Below, piece after piece: positions 4,246 through 19,012 of a DNA stretch of 64,000 nucleotides (positions are counted from its first letter, which is position 1; every line of letters starts with the position of its first letter). The notes below the pieces were generated by a model, which worked only from the letters and a program-made list of their open reading frames with translations, was not told the DNA's origin and searched no databases. The stretch lies in assembly GCF_056712565.1 (NCBI RefSeq), contig NZ_CM160072.1, one strand, 5' to 3'. A program made the position numbers and the translations under genes.

Positions 4246-4914
4246 TTACTGCCCAGAGTTTTGTTGGTATTCATCTACCATTTTTTTGACAAGGCAAAAC
4301 ATCACAGAAATCACAATACTTAGAAAAAATCCCAGAGCCAGGCAAATGGCAGCAGGGTATTTATTTTTTATTTCTGGTGAGCTTATAGTGACACAGCCAT
4401 CACCGTTCGGATACAGTGACCAGTTCCTGGTCAGGTATATCATTTTTGTATAAAGCTCACTGTTAATTGCTGAAGGCGTTTGTATCTCATCGAGAACTTG
4501 CCTGCCATTATGGTATTCTGACGCATACCATTTGATGATAGACGCCTGCACGCGAGATATTTCCGCTTCAGCAGTTGGTAAATCTCTCTTATTTCCTGAC
4601 CATTCCAGCTTTATTTCTCTGTTCTTGACATCTGGGCTGGTCTGAAAAAATGTAGTAATTCGCTGAATAACATCTTCAGTCATTGTGGTCTGACAGGCAA
4701 AGTTATTATTGCTATCACAGCTAACAAGTATGCCTGGTGTTGTCTGGTTTATTTTTAGACTGTAAGTCACTTTTATATTATCTTTATTGATATACAGAAA
4801 CAACAGCACCATTACCATACAGATAGCTATAATAAAAAGGATAACACGAATCTTTTTCTTCAGATAAAATAAAATCTCAATCAGATCGATATCCTGTTTG
4901 ATTTGTTCATTCAT
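4246..4914 (-). CDS. ykgH: Predicted inner-membrane protein YkgH
   Basis: 222-aa ORF with an N-terminal hydrophobic segment; position after ykgG matches K-12. Confidence 0.85.
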   Translation of the reverse strand: MNEQIKQDIDLIEILFYLKKKIRVILFIIAICMVMVLLFLYINKDNIKVTYSLKINQTTPGILVSCDSNNNFACQTTMTEDVIQRITTFFQTSPDVKNREIKLEWSGNKRDLPTAEAEISRVQASIIKWYASEYHNGRQVLDEIQTPSAINSELYTKMIYLTRNWSLYPNGDGCVTISSPEIKNKYPAAICLALGFFLSIVISVMFCLVKKMVDEYQQNSGQ

Positions 4915-5097
4915 AATATATCCAGAAAATGAAATCTGTCGCAGATAAGATTGTATTAATAGTCTGTATCAGGAATGTTCAGGGTAAATATCAGCAAAAA
5001 GCCAGCATCATGAATACTGGATATTTATAGCCTGCAGGCAGCATACTGCTGCCTGCAGGGGGTATAACAGTCGACAGGGGAACCGACTGCTTTATTC

Positions 5098-7395
5098 TTA
5101 CCAGGTCACATTGATACCAACTACACCCTGTAGCGGGTTCTCAATGTCGTCACCTTTGGTGTAGTCAAGGCTTGCATATGCTCCCATGTTTTTGGTGATA
5201 TCAGCCTGTACACCTGCACCCACGCGGAATGCTGCACCGTCAATGCTGGCATTGACAGACTCATCACCCAGACGGACTTTGTTGCCATCAGAGAATTCGT
5301 TCAGTGCGGCCAGATTCAGATAAGGTTTAACGGTCGCGTTGCCCACAGCGAAGTCATAACCCACGCGCGTACCGGCCTCACCCAGCACAGAGTTATAGCT
5401 GTCAGAATGAACGTCCACGCCGTTGAGTTGATAATCCACACCTTCCAGAGTCAGAGCAGACAGTTTGGCATATGGCTGAATAAACAGGCCATTACCGTCT
5501 TTCCATGTGTAACCGCCTTTAACCATCGCACCAAAACCATTGGTGTTAAAGTCAGCTTTGATGGTACCGCCACCATTCATCAGGCGAACATCTGCCGTGT
5601 TGCTGTAGTGACCAAACTGTGCAGCAGTATCAATGAAGATACCGTTGTTATACTGGCGGCTCAGGTAAGCGTGGAAGCTGTAACCTTCAGTGTCACCTTT
5701 GCTCTGCATGGTAGTCATGTCACCTTTCGCAGAAGACATCGCCACACCGGCCAGCCAGCTACCATCTTCAGTCATGAAGCGGGTATCACCACCCAGCATT
5801 ACACCATTTACATCCAGGTCATAGGATGCATTTCCCGCGGTGGTATGTTTCTGTTTACCGCCAAAGTACTGAATCCATACGCCACCCTTGTCATTTTCGC
5901 TCAGACGGACAGCATCCTGACGGGCGGAGAGCGTGTCAGCCTGCAGATTAGCGACGTTAGCCGGAGCAGCTGCCATTGCCTGAATCACGGAGCTGGCGTT
6001 GGATGCTTTATGCGTGTTTTTTACGAAATAAAAGTTACCATCAGCTCCCTGTGTCAGGTCATATTGATACAGACCACCTTCCGTTGTGCCTGTGGCTTTT
6101 AGAGTGCTGTCTTTGCCGGTAGAAATAAATGCCGTTTGTTCATTGATAAGATCCAATGAACCCGCACTGTAAACACGCAAGTCACCGCTCGCTTTACCGC
6201 TGATATCCAGAGTGTTTTCAGAAGAGGCATCAACAATCAGAGTGCCGTTTTGAGAAGCAAACGTGCCAGTATTGACTGTAGCCTTCGTGATATTAACCGT
6301 ACTGTCTTTTACTGCCAGAGCATCAACAGTTGAGGAACCCGTAACATTCCAGACAGACCCGTTTTGCAGAGATACACTGGCATCTCCTGCCCCTGAAACT
6401 TTGCCTTTCCAGACTGAACTATCGGAAAGATTTATATCCAGATCACTACCCGCTTTATCGCCGCTATTGAAGGTATAAGCATTACCTTCCCAGTAAGAGC
6501 GGGCAACGTTCATATTTACATTTGTTGTGGTACTGGCTGAATTCTCGCTTTCAGAAAGGGCCAGGACATCAGAGTAGATGGTTGAATCAGCAACAGACAA
6601 ATTTAAATTTTGCGTTGCTGAACCTGCGCCTTGTGCCGAAGCAGAGGCATAAATTGTTTGTTTATTATTAGCCGCCCCAATTACTGAGCCATCCTTAATA
6701 TTCAGGTTGACTGTATGAATTCCCGTCTTATTCCCGGCAGTAACTATTGTTTCAATCCCGCCATTAATAATATTTGAGTCAGCAAGGGTGATGTTGTCGG
6801 TTGCATCACCGTCAAAACCCTGCAACAAATTACCCTTTTGAGCAAAAATTGCCGTAGAGCCGTTGCTGTAACTCTTATTACCTTGAGCATTTATGGTTGT
6901 ACCATTGAGCGTTAAATTATTTCCCGTGGTCGCTTCCAGAGATATCCCTGTCGCACTACCTTTTTCATTTTTTGCAACGAAATTACCGCCATTAACAACA
7001 ACATCGCCAGTTGAATCAATGACCATTGCAGTCCGGACATAGGTGCCTTCACCTTGAGCTGTGATGGTGGAGTCTGTAGCATTAATCACAACATTTTTGT
7101 TACCACTAACTTTTACACCTTCAACGAAATCTTGGTTTACCGTTGATGCGGCGGTAATATCGTGACCGCCAAAAGTAACATTAAGGTCTTTATCTGAATC
7201 TGACGTTTCAATTGTTACGGCTGTAATCTTGTTATCACCGTTAATAACAACATCTTGATCCAGAGTCGTCTTCTCTGTATTCAGCGTAACCGGATCAGTT
7301 GATACCGTGCTATCAGTAGCGAATGCTGGTGCAGAAAGAGCCATAACAATAGCTGTCGCTAATGCGCTGCGGTAAAATGCCTTACTGTTTTTCAT
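5098..7395 (-). CDS. upaE: Type Va autotransporter: signal peptide, N/T/G/S-rich beta-helix-like passenger, C-terminal beta-barrel ending in W. Possibly UpaE
   Basis: Long ORF; start chosen at MKNSKAF (7395), which has a GGAG motif 9 nt upstream and a classical signal peptide; passenger is rich in short N/T/G repeats; C-terminal roughly 280 aa is barrel-like and ends GINVTW. Symbol by locus architecture from memory, not alignment. Confidence 0.7.
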   Translation of the reverse strand: MKNSKAFYRSALATAIVMALSAPAFATDSTVSTDPVTLNTEKTTLDQDVVINGDNKITAVTIETSDSDKDLNVTFGGHDITAASTVNQDFVEGVKVSGNKNVVINATDSTITAQGEGTYVRTAMVIDSTGDVVVNGGNFVAKNEKGSATGISLEATTGNNLTLNGTTINAQGNKSYSNGSTAIFAQKGNLLQGFDGDATDNITLADSNIINGGIETIVTAGNKTGIHTVNLNIKDGSVIGAANNKQTIYASASAQGAGSATQNLNLSVADSTIYSDVLALSESENSASTTTNVNMNVARSYWEGNAYTFNSGDKAGSDLDINLSDSSVWKGKVSGAGDASVSLQNGSVWNVTGSSTVDALAVKDSTVNITKATVNTGTFASQNGTLIVDASSENTLDISGKASGDLRVYSAGSLDLINEQTAFISTGKDSTLKATGTTEGGLYQYDLTQGADGNFYFVKNTHKASNASSVIQAMAAAPANVANLQADTLSARQDAVRLSENDKGGVWIQYFGGKQKHTTAGNASYDLDVNGVMLGGDTRFMTEDGSWLAGVAMSSAKGDMTTMQSKGDTEGYSFHAYLSRQYNNGIFIDTAAQFGHYSNTADVRLMNGGGTIKADFNTNGFGAMVKGGYTWKDGNGLFIQPYAKLSALTLEGVDYQLNGVDVHSDSYNSVLGEAGTRVGYDFAVGNATVKPYLNLAALNEFSDGNKVRLGDESVNASIDGAAFRVGAGVQADITKNMGAYASLDYTKGDDIENPLQGVVGINVTW

Positions 7396-7436
7396 GAAGA
7401 AATTCTCCATTCTGGTAACTAATTTCAATTTCCCAC

Positions 7437-8198
7437 TTATTTATATTTATGCAGAGATAAAGCCTGCGTCCCTGCATTTACCACCACGGAATACCTGTTG
7501 GTATTTCCGTTTTCACGCAATGTCATGGCATTCGTTGTTTCCAATGCATTTCCATCACCGTGAAAATTATTGCTGCTCAGCAGCAGGGCTTCCCGCAATG
7601 ACATGCTGTCCGGTATTCCCCAACGCTTTTTTAGCGACTGCTCGGCAAGCCATATCTGTCTTATCCCCGTTTTGAGAAACTGCGCACTGTATTCCCAGCT
7701 GTGTCCGGCAAGAAGTAACGACAACACCTTCTTTTGCTTTTCCGGGAAGCGTTCTGACATGACGATTGTCTTTGTGCGGTTATTCACCTCTTTCATAAAG
7801 ACAGAGTAACTGTCCATAACTGGCAAAATTTCTGCATGCTTCAGCCCTGAAAACCCACCAGAGGCATTTGCAATACTGATGACACGCTCTACTGACATTC
7901 CTGGTTTCAGTAACCTCAGGTTTTTGAGAACGCCAGAAATACTCACATCCGGTGGCAGAAAAAAGGGCGTGACGCACAACACCACCACGAATGAGTGATC
8001 CCGATAAAATCGGAACCACATTTCAGCGCATTCGGCAGGTCGCCCTGCCGATATCACGACACTCTGTGGCCTGTGCCGCAATTTATTGCGTAACTCCTCT
8101 TCTGTTCTGATGCAGGTAACATTGCCGACAGAACCGGTTGATAGAGCTGCGAACTGCGCTGGTACAATTCCTGAGGGACAGAAAAGAACGAAACGCAT
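7437..8198 (-). CDS. Hypothetical regulator with a degenerate LuxR/GerE-type HTH region
   Basis: 253-aa ORF directly upstream of the autotransporter (8-bp gap); segment LSLLLAGHSWEYSAQFLKTGIRQIWLAEQSLKKRWGI loosely resembles a LuxR HTH. Confidence 0.5.
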   Translation of the reverse strand: MRFVLFCPSGIVPAQFAALSTGSVGNVTCIRTEEELRNKLRHRPQSVVISAGRPAECAEMWFRFYRDHSFVVVLCVTPFFLPPDVSISGVLKNLRLLKPGMSVERVISIANASGGFSGLKHAEILPVMDSYSVFMKEVNNRTKTIVMSERFPEKQKKVLSLLLAGHSWEYSAQFLKTGIRQIWLAEQSLKKRWGIPDSMSLREALLLSSNNFHGDGNALETTNAMTLRENGNTNRYSVVVNAGTQALSLHKYK

Positions 8199-8351
8199 CC
8201 TTCCCTCACAGATGTCAGTACGCCAGCACGCTGTACAGGCTGTACAGCGTGCCTCCCAATCCTGCAGCCCAGAACAGTAGAAATATTTTGGCTCCTACAC
8301 TGTAGCGAGTCCGTATGCGCCGCAGTGGGTGGTAGTAACAACGCTGCTGTG

Positions 8352-9146
8352 TCATAACAATCCTGGTCTTTTTTTAGATATATTTTTTCTTTGTCCGGAA
8401 AGTACTTTTCCGGAAATGGCGTCAGAATTTATTGATTCACCAACGGCAACTTTCTCTGGATAAAGGATTCCGGATACCATGTTCTGCACATACTGAGTGA
8501 GTCGATGAGCGGAATGTTGTCCGATATATTTTGCATGTAGCCGTATATTCCGTTTCACTCTGCTGTCACCGCATCCCGTATAGAGCAGCCTGAAATCGCT
8601 CAGTGTTCCCAGTCCAAGTTTCATTAAAGCCCGTGTGGCAATCGCATGCAGGGTCTTTGAACTGCGTTGTTCATAACGGGCAATCTCACTGAAACTCATG
8701 CCCTGCATCAGAATCTTAAGCACGCTCAACTCCCGTGCAGTCAGGAGCCAGAAATCGCTCATATCGCCGGGCAAAGGACGTAGTAACCAGCGGATAATTT
8801 GATTCTGATAACGACTCGCTGTCAGCATGGTGCCGATGCGTGGGAAGCCGTTATACAGACTTGCAGCAGGAGCATTATCGAACCAGTCGGAGTCACCGGT
8901 CAGGCAGACCTGCCATTGCCCGGCATCACTCCGCAAACGGGCGAGACAAGCCAGAAGAACCAACTCCCCCGAAGGAAGCGAAGGGATATCAGCTAACAGG
9001 TAGCCACAGGAGGTCTTTAAAACGAATTCAACCTCTGTAGTGACGTTGCTGTACACCCGCACGATATACCTGTCCGTTGGGATGAGAGACTCCAGTGCCA
9101 GCCTGGTGAACTGACAGGCACTGATAATAACCAGAGGCTTCTTCAT
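8352..9146 (-). CDS. ipuR: LuxR/GerE-family transcriptional regulator, possibly IpuR
   Basis: 264-aa ORF; clear LuxR-type HTH (LTARELSVLKILMQGMSFSEIARYEQRSSKTLHAIATRALMKLGL); first gene downstream of the candidate invertible element. Symbol by architecture only. Confidence 0.65.
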   Translation of the reverse strand: MKKPLVIISACQFTRLALESLIPTDRYIVRVYSNVTTEVEFVLKTSCGYLLADIPSLPSGELVLLACLARLRSDAGQWQVCLTGDSDWFDNAPAASLYNGFPRIGTMLTASRYQNQIIRWLLRPLPGDMSDFWLLTARELSVLKILMQGMSFSEIARYEQRSSKTLHAIATRALMKLGLGTLSDFRLLYTGCGDSRVKRNIRLHAKYIGQHSAHRLTQYVQNMVSGILYPEKVAVGESINSDAISGKVLSGQRKNISKKRPGLL

Positions 9147-9172
9147 TCAGACTCGTCCACGCCATTGCTACA

Positions 9173-9465
9173 AAACCTGACATTTTGATTCAAAATGTCA
9201 GGTTTGGTTTAATAGCCTGAATATTTAATTTTCTTGGAATATAAATCTGATTTGTTTGATTTTTATTGTTTTTAATTTTGTATTATTTAACAATATGGGC
9301 GAAAGTTAATCACTGGTATGACCTTTGTGATTAATCATTTCAAATCATGGGGTTATTTTACTTTAGCTAGAAATATCAACATGTTATGTGTTTTATTTAA
9401 TTGAATGGGCTGTTTTTTTATGGAAGAATTGAGGAAAACGTAGGAATCTGACATTTTGAATCAGA
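9173..9465. promoter_or_regulatory. Candidate invertible promoter switch: 12-bp perfect inverted repeats (tcaaaatgtcag at 9190-9201, ctgacattttga at 9448-9459) flank a 246-bp AT-rich segment; a 33-bp perfect palindrome spans 9173-9205
   Basis: Repeats read directly from the sequence; element sits between the recombinase stop (9476) and the LuxR gene start (9146), the same layout as fimE-fimS-fimA. Confidence 0.6.
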
Positions 9466-9475
9466 AGGTACTGTT

Positions 9476-10039
9476 TTAACGAGGCTTTTTTTTCCACACC
9501 CCTTTAAAACGAGCAGCATTACTGGCTGTGTATCTGACAGTATGCTGAATATTTCGATGACCCAGGTAATCCTGAAGTAGTCGGGTATCGACACCATTGT
9601 CAGCCAGAGCAAAACCACAGGCATGACGTAACATATGAGGATGTGCTTTTACAGCTAATCCTGCACGTTTTCCAGCCTCACGAATGATAGAAAAAAAATG
9701 TTGTCTGCTGATAGGGCGGCGTTTCCGGGAGAGAAAAAGCCAGTCTCCTTCAACTCCGTTTTCAATTAACTTCCTCTGCTTAAGCCACAACTTGATCAAA
9801 TTATATTCATCAGGAAGAAGAGGATGTGTTGTCGAGAAACCATTTTTAATACGCCGAATATTAAGTTGTTTTCCAGATGCATCAATATCGGATAAACGTA
9901 AATCAAGAAGTTCACTGGCCCTAAAACCGTGAATGAAAGCCATCATAATCAGACAGCGATTTCTTTCAGGAAAGGACATGCTCTGGGCTGCATCCATCAG
10001 CCTGTAGACTTCATCCTGTGTGAGATATTTTCTCGTCAT
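9476..10039 (-). CDS. ipuA: FimB/FimE-family tyrosine site-specific recombinase, possibly IpuA
   Basis: About 187-200 aa with FimB-like motifs (HGFRASE, GFSTTHPLL, HPHMLRH, CGFALA, DTRLLQDYLGHRNIQHTVRYTASNA); no fimbrial genes adjacent. ATG at 10039 preferred; alternative GTG at 10078. Confidence 0.8.
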   Translation of the reverse strand: MTRKYLTQDEVYRLMDAAQSMSFPERNRCLIMMAFIHGFRASELLDLRLSDIDASGKQLNIRRIKNGFSTTHPLLPDEYNLIKLWLKQRKLIENGVEGDWLFLSRKRRPISRQHFFSIIREAGKRAGLAVKAHPHMLRHACGFALADNGVDTRLLQDYLGHRNIQHTVRYTASNAARFKGVWKKKPR

Positions 10040-11108
10040 ACGCCACCGTGTACAGTTGTAAAAAAAAGAGAGGCACACCCAGATAAGTATGCCTGCAATC
10101 AGAACGTTATCGATGTAATCTCATTATCTCATTAATAAGATTTTTTGAATAGTAGTTCTACGCAACAGATTAAATATGAACTATTTATTGTGCAGCTTTT
10201 CTACAAGTCATTTTTAATGCGTGTTTTTATCTACTATAATGTGAAAAAAATAAATATTAAAACTATGAGTGACAGGTCGTGTGGGATGTGTATTACGTCT
10301 AATGCTTTAGTAATTTTTTATTATTTCTGAGATATTTAACATCATTTCCTGTGAGATTGTCTTGTTGTGTATCTAATTGATTTTAATTTTGTTTTTTTTG
10401 ATGCATAAATTTGGATGATAGAAAGTAAGATTAGCTTAATATCAATGATATGAATTTATAAATACATATTGTTGCAAGGTGTTCTTTACTTTTTTGGTCG
10501 TTAGTAAATCATTGTTAATGGGTTCTGTTCATAAATTAAAAATATTCATTTAAATGATTTTTACTTTTTGTATATCTCAATTTGTTTATTTTGCATTCAT
10601 TTGATGGAGAGTATTCCAACACTTTTTATTTTTCGCAAAAAACTTATTAACAACTTTTTATTATCAATTGAAAATTAATGTAAACTAAAATGTTAGCGAA
10701 GCGATAATCTTGTGCTAAAAAATATTTAAGCATGATGATTAATTAAAGAAGAGTAAAAATAAATCGCTGCTAATAAATTATACGAACCGTGTTTAAAGCT
10801 CCATGTGGTTTTGGTCTGACTTATTTTTGTACTCGTTACAAGAACCCTTTTCGTACATGCTAACCGTGAGCGGGAATGAACAGGTAACCATAGCCAGGAA
10901 CATTAGCGGCGTAATTCTTAAGCTGAGTGGTATTTCATCTGTAGTTTATCTGTGTATGCATAGCACCTTCATCAGCCAGATTGAGCAAGTCAGCTTAGAA
11001 TTTGCTGGTGAGATTGTCACGATGAAGCATGAGAGTTACCTCAGTGTTTTATATAAGGATTCGGTCCTCATAGTAGAACGGTAACTCTCAATCTGATAGG
11101 TTCCTGAG

Positions 11109-17096: not shown

Positions 17097-17923
17097 ACCT
17101 CTTGATACGTTATATCTGTGTACAGTTAAGCCCTTAGTATCGATTGATGATTGCCAGGCAACAGATAATAAAAAAGAAAAGAACTATTGAAGCCCAAAAC
17201 CTACGTTTGGACTGTTGTGAATGTTCAATAAGCTTAGTCTTATTTAATGTAAATATTGGTGCTAATTTGAAATGACGCTTTATTCATGGGGAACGCGTAG
17301 CGCAAATCAACTAAAATCAATGTAACTGTTTGTTGTTTAAGGTTTAATTGTCTGTGTCTGATATTTTATCGATTGTTTTAAATATTGTTTTTATTGTCAT
17401 TGTTATAATGTTGGCTATCTATTGCTGAATGGATTCAGTCTTAAGAAGCAGGTTGTTAAGGGATAGGCATAGAGTAATGACGTGTATGCATAACCAACAT
17501 CTTTACTCATTATGTCATTGAATGTTGACGCTATGTGTTTATGAGGTTGAGGTATTTTCAGTTGATCTGGATTGTTAAATTCATATAATGCGCCTTTACT
17601 CATGAATGGGCGTCAATACGTAGTGGGAAATTATAAATATCGAAATAGTCCAACTACTTCTTTATTACCAAAAATGAGTATCTGAATTTTAATATTGCAT
17701 TATTGCGTGATTATCTCCTGAGTTTGACTTGTGATTACCTTTTTAAGGTATTTAGCGTAACTGTTTTTGAGCGAGCATCAGAGGTAAAGATAATCTTCTT
17801 GATAGTGATGTGGGATGTTATACGTATGGCATCGCTAATGTTTATGGTTACCCCTTATGTGTGCTCAGGAATCCACAGGTAATCACTCATACTGAACAGC
17901 GATAAAAGATAAAAGGTGTGTTC

Positions 17924-19012
17924 ATGAATTCATGTGATTTTCGTGTTTTTCTGCAAGAGTTCGGTACAACGGTTCATTTGTCATTGCCTGGTAGCGTATC
18001 CGAGAAAGAACGACTGCTACTCAAGCTGCTGATGCAGGGAATGTCTGTAACAGAAATATCACAGTACAGAAATCGCAGTGCAAAGACCATTTCACATCAA
18101 AAGAAACAGCTCTTTGAGAAACTGGGGATTCAGAGCGATATTACTTTCTGGCGGGATATTTTCTTTCAGTACAATCCGGAGATCATATCCGCCACGGGTA
18201 ATAATAGTCACAAATATATTAATGATAATCACTATCACCATATCGTCACGCCTGAAGCCATCAGTCTGGCGTTGGAAAACCACGAGTTTAAACCGTGGAT
18301 CCAACCGGTTTTCTGCGCGCAGACTGGGGTACTGACGGGCTGTGAAGTGCTTGTCCGCTGGGAACATCCACAAACGGGAATGATCCCACCGGATCAGTTT
18401 ATTCCTCTGGCGGAGTCATCCGGTCTTATTGTCATAATGACTCGCCAGCTGATGAAACAGACTGCGGATATTCTGATGCCGGTAAAACATTTGCTGCCGG
18501 ACAATTTCCATATTGGTATCAACGTCTCGGCGGGCTGTTTTTTGGCTGCGGGATTTGAAAAAGAGTGTCTGAACCTGGTTAAGAAATTAGGTAACGATAA
18601 AATCAAGCTGGTTCTTGAGCTGACGGAACGTAATCCTATTCCGGTAACGCCAGAAGCCAGAGCGATATTTGACAGCCTTCATCAGCACAATATTACTTTT
18701 GCGCTGGATGACTTTGGTACGGGTTATGCGACCTATCGTTACTTGCAGGCGTTCCCGGTCGATTTTATTAAAATTGACAAGTCGTTTGTGCAAATGGCGA
18801 GTGTCGATGAAATCTCCGGTCATATTGTGGACAATATTGTCGAACTGGCGCGTAAGCCTGGTCTGAGTATCGTGGCGGAAGGGGTAGAAACCCAGGAGCA
18901 GGCGGATTTAATGATCGGTAAAGGCGTTCACTTTTTACAGGGCTATTTGTACTCTCCGCCAGTACCGGGTAATAAATTTATCTCTGAATGGGTAATGAAA
19001 GCAGGTGGTTGA
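17924..19012 (+). CDS. pdeL: c-di-GMP phosphodiesterase PdeL (YahA): LuxR-type HTH plus EAL domain
   Basis: N-terminal LuxR HTH and C-terminal EAL-domain region; long AT-rich upstream region as at K-12 pdeL. Start taken at MNSCDF. Confidence 0.9.
   Translation: MNSCDFRVFLQEFGTTVHLSLPGSVSEKERLLLKLLMQGMSVTEISQYRNRSAKTISHQKKQLFEKLGIQSDITFWRDIFFQYNPEIISATGNNSHKYINDNHYHHIVTPEAISLALENHEFKPWIQPVFCAQTGVLTGCEVLVRWEHPQTGMIPPDQFIPLAESSGLIVIMTRQLMKQTADILMPVKHLLPDNFHIGINVSAGCFLAAGFEKECLNLVKKLGNDKIKLVLELTERNPIPVTPEARAIFDSLHQHNITFALDDFGTGYATYRYLQAFPVDFIKIDKSFVQMASVDEISGHIVDNIVELARKPGLSIVAEGVETQEQADLMIGKGVHFLQGYLYSPPVPGNKFISEWVMKAGG

Follow-up and report, generated by a model that had tools for sequence, protein, structure and literature searches.

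The window (the whole stretch of DNA analysed, 64,000 nt) contains two small minus-strand genes, at 8352..9146 and 7437..8198, the first of which was originally predicted to code for a helix-turn-helix (HTH) closely matching that of PdeL, a protein encoded in the same window, and the second for a degenerate version of it. From this a shared DNA-recognition family was proposed, with possible regulatory cross-talk with PdeL targets. The question raised by the locus is whether this resemblance is a special one, or that expected of any two LuxR-type proteins. The two open reading frames exist as described, and code for proteins of 264 and 253 aa respectively. They are hyxR and hyxA of PAI-X (fimX-hyxS-hyxRAB), a previously described Escherichia coli island inserted between ykgH and betA. 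The window is ExPEC E. coli DNA and was 100% identical to that of UTI89 and APEC O1, where the genes are annotated as hyxB, hyxA, hyxR and ipbA. Inspection of complete E. coli genomes identified PAI-X in 1830 of 5426. The island is that of Bateman & Seed 2012, a paper cited by PMC3789825, PMC6083910 and PMC8777976. PAI-X, the promoter flipped by FimX and the LuxR-type nature of HyxR have been on record since 2012, and the LuxR-type HTH of PdeL was known too. The account that we consider likely as a whole is that these are known PAI-X genes, that HyxR has a LuxR-type HTH and HyxA a diverged copy of it, and that the likeness to PdeL is an ordinary, family-level one.

All parts of the islet (the fimX/ipbA recombinase, the hyxS invertible promoter, hyxR, hyxA and the hyxB/upaB autotransporter) already have names in both RefSeq and published work. 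The fimX/ipbA/hbiF gene (9476..10039, minus strand; annotated IpbA/FimX) codes for a tyrosine-type DNA invertase, with a match to the Pfam Phage_integrase family (PF00589, E 4.7e-50) on 9476-10078, beside hyxS. An inverted-repeat search delimited a hyxS-type invertible promoter element of 272 bp (9189..9460) that has perfectly matching 13-bp inverted repeats at its two ends, TTCAAAATGTCAG at 9189-9201 and CTGACATTTTGAA at 9448-9460. The layout of a Fim-type module is therefore present, namely a recombinase gene, then a 272-bp repeat-bounded element (expected size, ~250-320 bp), then an operon. The last gene of hyxRAB, at 5098..7395 on the minus strand, is that of the autotransporter hyxB, for which the name upaB is also used (PMC3789825); its product matched the Pfam autotransporter beta-domain with E 1.5e-47. 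The mechanical open reading frame of hyxB/upaB extends to a TTG at 7428.

Inversion of hyxS by FimX has been reported, for UTI89 and CFT073, to switch hyxR (PMC6083910; PMC8777976), and a comparable 269-bp switch occurs in Salmonella (PMC11294581). According to the literature, the tyrosine recombinase FimX flips the ~270-bp hyxS between its inverted repeats; in one orientation the internal promoter of hyxS drives hyxR and, presumably, hyxA and hyxB/upaB as well. Papers citing the work on HyxR relate that it lowers hmpA expression and tolerance to nitrosative stress (PMC3789825, PMC8777976). In the literature, hyxR and hyxA mutants are also described as having O-antigen chains of altered length and as being less resistant to serum.

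HyxR, annotated in UTI89 and APEC O1 as 'LuxR family transcriptional regulator HyxR', is a bona fide LuxR/FixJ-type four-helix HTH protein, its HTH core spanning residues 135-189 (8580..8744, minus strand; LTARELSVLKILMQGMSFSEIARYEQRSSKTLHAIATRALMKLGLGTLSDFRLLY). The domain search located a LuxR/GerE HTH at residues 135-181 (PF00196; the score of 27.9 bits exceeds the cut-off of 23.5, with E 1.8e-6), as had been predicted, and a profile of the K-12 LuxR HTHs scored 38.9-41.5 bits. The core could be aligned without gaps to those of 17 K-12 paralogs. In the AlphaFold2 (AF2) model of HyxR, four helices were predicted at residues 137-147, 152-159, 163-176 and 182-190 (pLDDT 67-86); this HTH superposed on the C-terminal domain of DosR at 1.9 Å, and on those of DosR, NarL and GerE over a range of 1.9-4 Å, with a Foldseek probability of 1.00. 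The mean pLDDT of the model was 49, and its usable part is the HTH; elsewhere, statements on fold rest on sequence profiles. The low AF2 confidence for HyxR (49) and HyxA (45) derives from the shallow alignments. A HyxR dimer would be expected to bind DNA via this HTH. No EAL domain was found in HyxR or HyxA in a Pfam search.

Past the HTH core HyxR has 75 residues (codons 190-264; 8355..8579, minus strand) and HyxA 48, while in the 16 K-12 paralogs whose HTH is C-terminal this stretch is 1-33 residues long, with a median of 6. The long C-terminal extensions noticed from the sequence are thus real and well above that median, although they are uneven in length. The HyxR tail was short or absent in eight of the nine other HyxR-family sequences compared (194-252 aa long), its identity to divergent variants was 23-44% where alignable, and its AF2 pLDDT was < 40. 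Both proteins end in non-conserved extensions, and the tails are variable and probably disordered.

The N-terminal halves of HyxR and HyxA appear to be lineage-specific, with no sequence homology to receiver domains detectable in the comparisons made. Neither protein had a Response_reg match in Pfam, and hhalign of HyxR 1-130 and HyxA 1-145 against eight K-12 REC domains returned probabilities of 0.4% and 0.8%, respectively. The DD pair after strand 1, as read from the sequence, is missing, with S-A-C in place. Smith-Waterman comparison of the N-terminal domains with those of the K-12 paralogs gave nothing significant (z ≤ 3.5); an RcsA-like 'C..TRL.L' N-terminal motif was discounted as too short. 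The AF2 models of both halves alternate strand and helix at pLDDT < 55, and the top Foldseek matches of the low-confidence HyxR model were full-length FixJ, RcsB, VpsT and DosR (E 0.02-0.1). For both models, the Foldseek matches are no more than suggestive.

For the product of hyxA, RefSeq says only 'protein HyxA', and Phan et al. 2013 (PMC3789825) offered no functional prediction. A degenerate version of the HTH had been proposed for it from the sequence. This proposal held at the level of profiles: HyxA very probably has a strongly diverged LuxR-type HTH at about residues 149-205 (7584..7754, minus strand; RFPEKQKKVLSLLLAGHSWEYSAQFLKTGIRQIWLAEQSLKKRWGIPDSMSLREAL; located with hhalign). When HyxA and its divergent partial homolog P0086 were aligned with hhalign to the K-12 LuxR HTH alignment, the match had a probability of 91.6% and an E of 8.1e-7, and placed HyxA 149-198 onto HTH columns 2-51, i.e. 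50 columns in register. The real score was 33.3, against a maximum of 16.3 in 300 column shuffles and 8.1 for the reversed alignment, the HyxA profile being shallow (two effective sequences, Neff 1.46). Between HyxA and its partial homologs P0085 and P0086, identity over the HTH region was ~49%, and this is the conserved part of the divergent homologs. In Smith-Waterman comparisons its best pairwise match was BglJ (z 6.6-6.7). The two top PDB matches of the HyxA model in Foldseek were both full-length RcsB, at a non-significant E of 0.18-0.34. HyxA had no Pfam or NCBIfam match even at E ≤ 10, whether the whole protein, a 76-aa segment or the homolog P0086 was used, and BLASTP against PdeL gave E 0.22. 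The support is therefore at the profile level only.

The alternative that survives best, yet is improbable, is that HyxA contains no HTH, that the match is an artefact of helical propensity, and that HyxA acts by an unrelated mechanism. The lack of a Pfam or NCBIfam match agrees with this, as do the low AF2 confidence, the 3.5-5 bits scored by the K-12 HTH HMM (equalled by three of 2000 shuffles) and the 0.3% probability returned by hhalign between the HyxR family and HyxA. It does not, however, account for the 50 in-register columns aligned together with P0086, a score that none of the 300 shuffles came near, or for the conservation of precisely this region in divergent homologs. A second PdeL-like stretch, at HyxA residues 94-113 (score 38, equalled by two of 500 shuffles), was taken as due to chance.

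Returning to HyxA as the carrier of a diverged HTH, its recognition helix reads G-I-R-Q-I-W where the family has S-x-K-T-V/I, the conserved K-T being lost. HyxA is more likely to be a modulator or a partner than an independent sequence-specific DNA binder. Given the 0.3% hhalign probability between the HyxR family and HyxA, there is no evidence of a recent duplication. In L016, the gene adjoining the HyxR-like gene is a 199-aa open reading frame with no similarity to HyxA and no Pfam match. The fold assignment of HyxA is one small gain of this analysis. With it, the idea that HyxR and HyxA act as a regulator pair can be put to the test; the assignment is also consistent with the O-antigen and serum-resistance phenotypes of hyxA and hyxR. 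Speculatively, and with a probability that we rate as low, HyxA might be a cryptic, degenerate LuxR-type partner that hetero-oligomerises with HyxR or RcsB in the manner of RcsA, BglJ or MatA; phase-variable hyxRA would then form a two-subunit regulator retuning traits of the envelope, O-antigen chain length and serum resistance among them, with the tails serving as partner-binding or stability determinants.

The comparison partner, pdeL (yahA; 17924..19012, plus strand), lies outside the islet, ~9 kb from hyxR, and codes for a protein with an N-terminal LuxR-type HTH and a C-terminal EAL phosphodiesterase domain. The HTH occupies residues 25-79 (bases 17996-18160), with a Pfam GerE match of E 1.7e-8 on residues 25-72. 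A HMMER search with HyxR returned 24 proteins at E ≤ 0.001, nearly all of them fragments or variants of E. coli HyxR; since this set gave no ranking of LuxR paralogs, 16 K-12 LuxR-type genes were compared directly. BLASTP of HyxR against PdeL gave 37 bits (E 3e-7; 28 identities in 93 positions). In a phmmer comparison with 17 K-12 LuxR-type paralogs, PdeL was the best match for HyxR, at 26.4 bits against 19.1 for RcsB (a margin of ~7 bits), and among PDB chains PdeL (7pk5) again came first, at 22.9 bits, with RcsB second at 18.7 (a margin of 4 bits). Nominally, PdeL is thus the top-scoring relative of this HyxR allele among the K-12 paralogs as well as in the PDB, so a weak but real affinity is possible.

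The original prediction of a close match was right in that the match is real and PdeL scores highest, but overstated its closeness. Over the gapless 55-residue HTH core, HyxR had 20 identities to PdeL, 19 to UhpA, 19 to NarP and 18 to FimZ, and PdeL was the nearest paralog of HyxR in just 53% of column bootstraps. A profile built from 16 K-12 HTHs without PdeL scored 38.9 bits for HyxR, better than PdeL itself. The relation is also non-reciprocal, because the nearest paralog of the PdeL HTH was RcsB (35.8-40.8 bits; 25 of 55 identities; nearest in 77% of bootstraps, while HyxR was nearest in 7%). At family level, the similarity of HyxR to PdeL is essentially no better than that to unrelated LuxR proteins.

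The position of the shared residues was also informative. The extra similarity between HyxR and PdeL falls in the last part of helix a7 and within a8 (LMQGMS..EI..Y), outside the recognition helix. The recognition helices themselves, KTLHAIATR in HyxR and KTISHQKKQ in PdeL, differ at every position after K-T except for a conservative L/I; consequently, over the turn and recognition helix PdeL ranked only sixth for HyxR, with a score of 27 against 39 for RcsB. The base contacts of RcsB a9 are made by I179, K180, T181, S183 and S184 (PMC7913699), and at these positions HyxR and PdeL have in common only the family-wide K-T. Nor was the affinity stable across the HyxR family: the nearest K-12 paralog of other HyxR variants was NarP, UhpA, UvrY or MatA, and the distant HyxR homolog P0079 scored only 6.9 bits against PdeL.

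These results bear directly on the reading in which the HTHs of HyxR and PdeL make up a true subfamily, the two proteins overlapping in DNA specificity or forming heterodimers, such that phase-variable HyxR cross-regulates PdeL targets. The top rank of PdeL in both comparisons, the hexapeptide LMQGMS and the RS.KT common to the two proteins, and the short distance between their genes would be expected under it. The choice of RcsB rather than HyxR as nearest paralog by PdeL, the divergence of the recognition helices, the loss of the affinity in other HyxR variants and P0079, and the modest bootstrap support all speak against it, making it very unlikely. Since the link to PdeL is weak, non-reciprocal, off the recognition helix and unstable across HyxR variants, a special HyxR-PdeL recognition family, an operator common to both proteins or regulatory cross-talk at PdeL targets is unsupported. 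Least probable of all, to the point that it may be set aside, is that a short gene-conversion tract carried the LMQGMS patch from one of the neighbours pdeL and hyxR to the other, an explanation suggested by an identical 11-nt run (CTGATGCAGGG) under L-M-Q-G and by the use of the same codon at 11 of the 20 identical residues, but rejected because the two genes are 48% identical overall in nucleotide sequence across the HTH, with flanking codons that are unlike (including those for the S, E, I and Y that both proteins have), a match too short for a conversion tract, and LMQG present in divergent HyxR variants with other residues following it (LMQGGS, LMQGIS, LMQGKK). As far as the sequences indicate, the resemblance to PdeL is best taken as homology of the ordinary, family-wide kind, together with a few scaffold residues (LMQGMS, Y) that happen to coincide in this HyxR allele. 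The HyxR-PdeL 'signature' is hence unfit for predicting shared targets, and the importance of the result is mostly one of annotation hygiene.

Comparison with known systems places the locus as follows. It is the same locus as the PAI-X of the UPEC strains UTI89 and CFT073 and of ST131, with the same genes, inverted repeats and position between ykgH and betA, and no difference. PdeL (YahA), the 'trigger phosphodiesterase' (PMC5052742; PDB 7pk5), has the LuxR/FixJ-type HTH fold in common with HyxR, including the 20 of 55 identities and the LMQGMS motif; its HTH, however, lies at the N-terminus and is followed by a fused EAL domain, which HyxR lacks, and its recognition-helix residues are different. 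RcsB and its auxiliary partners RcsA, BglJ, MatA, GadE and DctR (PMC7913699) are likewise small proteins that combine a non-canonical N-terminal domain with a LuxR-type HTH. RcsB was the second-best PDB match of HyxR and had the closest recognition helix, the distant HyxR homolog P0079 matched MatA best, and the HyxA HTH matched BglJ best in pairwise comparison, although the N-terminal domains of HyxR and HyxA had no significant similarity to those of any of these proteins (z ≤ 3.5). As a module, PAI-X resembles ipuA/ipuB-ipuS-ipuR-upaE of CFT073, in which a Fim-like tyrosine recombinase and an invertible promoter of ~260-270 bp are likewise combined with an autotransporter and a regulator of the LuxR type (PMC6083910). 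The ipu module differs in having one regulator gene rather than two, and in its repeats and recombinase range, only FimX acting at hyxS (PMC6083910). The T1-antigen locus of Salmonella (STM0716-switch-STM0717-STM0718) has a FimX ortholog with 72% identity and identical inverted repeats, and STM0718 is a HyxA homolog with 39% identity; downstream, however, it contains polysaccharide biosynthesis genes, whereas PAI-X has an autotransporter (PMC11294581).

The islet is PAI-X, a known system. The stretch at 4900-11100 is 100% identical in DNA comparison to E. coli UTI89, APEC O1 and NU14, whose records annotate the gene order ykgH, hyxB, hyxA, hyxR, ipbA (FimX/HbiF) and then betA; at least 80% of it is carried by 1830 of the 5426 complete E. 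coli genomes. The two ORFs of the original prediction are hyxR (8352-9146, minus strand, 264 aa) and hyxA (7437-8198, minus strand, 253 aa), with 153 bp between them. The start of hyxB lies 41 bp past hyxA according to RefSeq (annotated start 7395), or 8 bp past it when the upstream TTG at 7428 of the mechanical ORF is used. The pdeL gene is annotated at 17924-19012 (plus strand), 9 kb from the islet ORFs, and its mechanical ORF opens at a GTG at 17918, upstream of the annotated ATG at 17924. As summarized in papers citing Bateman & Seed 2012 (PMC3789825, PMC8777976, PMC6083910), FimX inverts the hyxS promoter element and thereby switches hyxR, whose product, 'a LuxR-like response regulator', represses hmpA and lowers nitrosative-stress tolerance. 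The same papers report altered O-antigen chain length and changed serum sensitivity in ST131 hyxA and hyxR mutants, and identify the hyxB product as the autotransporter UpaB. Between fimX and betA, about 1 kb (10100-11100) is very AT-rich (GC 0.30), lacks annotated genes and contains only short ORFs (61 and 93 aa), probably marking the boundary or a remnant of the island.

The original observation that the HTH of HyxR closely matches that of PdeL was partly confirmed; the specific interpretation, a shared DNA-recognition family with possible cross-talk at pdeL targets, was not supported. The match itself is real. HyxR residues 135-181 form a Pfam GerE domain (27.9 bits, cut-off 23.5, E 1.8e-6), BLASTP of HyxR against PdeL gave 37 bits (E 3e-7), and the best PDB match for HyxR was PdeL (7pk5; 22.9 bits), with RcsB at 18.7 bits. 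Its special nature, however, did not hold up when the HTHs of 16 further K-12 LuxR/FixJ-type proteins were compared (NarL, NarP, UhpA, UvrY, EvgA, FimZ, RcsB, RcsA, BglJ, YjjQ, MatA, CsgD, SdiA, GadE, DctR and YhjB). In this set PdeL ranked first for the HyxR allele of the window, both by phmmer (26.4 bits; RcsB 19.1, FimZ 18.3) and by Smith-Waterman score (99 versus 76). Nevertheless, in the gapless alignment of the HTH core PdeL shared 20 of 55 positions with HyxR, and UhpA and NarP 19 each, a margin of one residue; column bootstrapping (2000 replicates) placed PdeL nearest in just 53% of cases, and a profile built from the 16 other HTHs, PdeL left out, scored HyxR higher (38.9 bits) than did PdeL itself. 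The relation is not reciprocal: the PdeL HTH was closest to RcsB (40.8 bits with the NCBIfam RcsB model, 35.8 bits by phmmer, 25/55 identities, nearest in 77% of bootstraps), while HyxR tied with UvrY and UhpA.

The surplus similarity between HyxR and PdeL lay at the end of helix a7 and in helix a8 (LMQGMS..EI..Y). Over the turn and recognition helix, PdeL was only the sixth closest to HyxR (score 27, versus 39 for RcsB). Base contacts in RcsB are made by I179, K180, T181, S183 and S184 (PMC7913699); at these positions HyxR reads S-K-T-(L)-H-A and PdeL A-K-T-(I)-S-H. All they have in common there is the K-T found throughout the family. The nearest K-12 paralog also varied among HyxR-family sequences: NarP for P0050 and P0051, UvrY or UhpA for P0048, P0058 and P0062, and MatA for P0079. 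PdeL came first only for the window's allele and for P0043 and P0059, narrowly so for the latter two. P0079, the sole distant full-length HyxR homolog found among 1.84 billion representative proteins (34% identity, 197 aa), scored 18.5 bits with MatA and 6.9 with PdeL. Local gene conversion between hyxR and pdeL is excluded by an HTH nucleotide identity of 48%. On these sequence comparisons, the likeness amounts to generic homology within the LuxR family, to which a few scaffold residues that happen to coincide are added. No prediction of common operators can be based on it, and the proposed cross-talk is not supported.

HyxA had been described as carrying a degenerate version of the same HTH. 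It matched no curated model, and its pairwise scores were marginal throughout: E 0.22 in BLASTP to PdeL, and a Smith-Waterman z of 6.6-6.7 for BglJ and 4.4-5.5 for PdeL. The K-12 HTH HMM gave 3.5-5 bits, equalled by 3 of 2000 shuffles. Among plasmid records, tblastn turned up a divergent homolog of precisely the HyxA HTH segment, truncated by IS1, in locus L017; a longer form, P0086, occurs in the protein collection. When HyxA 142-215 plus P0086 was aligned by hhalign with the 17-sequence K-12 HTH alignment, HyxA 149-198 fell in register with columns 2-51 (Prob 91.6%, E 8.1e-7, score 33.3); 300 column shuffles had a mean of 9.4 (sd 1.9, maximum 16.3) and the reversed alignment scored 8.1. The description is thus very probably right: HyxA would be a diverged LuxR-type HTH protein without the conserved recognition-helix K-T. 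HyxA as a recent duplicate of HyxR was not detectable by hhalign (probability 0.3%). The HyxA fold assignment is the sole new increment. Another stretch with a fainter likeness to the PdeL motif, at HyxA residues 94-113 (window 7860-7919; LRLLKPGMSVERVISIANAS versus LKLLMQGMSVTEISQYRNRS in PdeL), scored 38, was equalled by 2 of 500 shuffles and is probably due to chance. Public HyxA entries are often frameshifted or joined to adjacent frames (P0004, P0009, P0014, P0017, P0027, P0029-P0031, P0094), which suggests that hyxA frequently decays to a pseudogene or that its homopolymers are misread in sequencing.

The long extensions noted beyond the HTH were correctly observed: 75 residues follow the core in HyxR and 48 in HyxA, compared with 1-33 (median 6) in the 16 K-12 paralogs whose HTH is C-terminal. 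The tail is the least conserved part of HyxR (23-44% identity to divergent variants where alignable; HTH 65-78%), and its AF2 pLDDT is below 40. Among the HyxR-family sequences compared, it is complete only in the near-identical allele P0033; in eight divergent sequences (194-252 aa) it is shortened or missing. P0085 and P0086, the HyxA homologs, stop nine residues past the last conserved HTH residues, EALLL. Both tails are probably variable, disordered extensions rather than an extra conserved domain.

HyxR is termed a 'response regulator' in the papers cited for PAI-X, and by sequence the N-terminal halves of HyxR and HyxA matched neither receiver domains (hhalign probability below 1%) nor the K-12 paralogs (z ≤ 3.5). 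In low-confidence AF2 models these halves alternate strands and helices; the best Foldseek hits were full-length FixJ, RcsB, VpsT and DosR for HyxR (E 0.02-0.1) and RcsB for HyxA (E 0.18-0.34). A receiver-like fold is a plausible candidate for them.

Between fimX and hyxR, an inverted-repeat search located an element of 272 bp, bounded by perfect 13-bp inverted repeats (9189-9201 and 9448-9460). It agrees with how hyxS and the related Salmonella T1 switch are described in the literature (PMC11294581). At the hyxR-proximal boundary, 9170-9208 contains an additional near-perfect local palindrome (ACAAAACCTGACATTTTGA / TCAAAATGTCAGGTTTGGT), so that the left repeat has an inverted copy of its own; this might serve as another half-site for recombination or as a site where a protein binds. 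Within the element, a sigma-70-like match (TTAACT-16-AATAAT; 9282-9309, minus strand) directed to hyxR would mean that this assembly has the element in an ON-like orientation, weak evidence for a promoter because the whole scan returned fewer sites than the shuffled expectation.

Related arrangements occur elsewhere. At L017 (4004-4640) and L018 (1-5364), the HyxA-like HTH fragment (P0085/P0086), interrupted by IS1 in the plasmid copy, is followed by a CaiF/GrlA-family regulator, while the opposite strand encodes a large, apparently surface protein (576 or 987 aa). The ipuS-ipuR-upaE locus (PMC6083910) has the same design as PAI-X, with a Fim-type recombinase and a switch alongside a LuxR-type regulator and an autotransporter. 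A third module of this kind adjoins yagU in L016 (10734-15311; E. coli Eco_23-2667) and L014, and with this degree of similarity was found in only one of the 5426 complete E. coli genomes. It has no annotated recombinase, and encodes a 199-aa hypothetical protein (possibly with a degenerate HTH), a 208-aa HyxR-like protein of the P0079 type (34% identical to HyxR, without the long tail) and a 1003-aa autotransporter.
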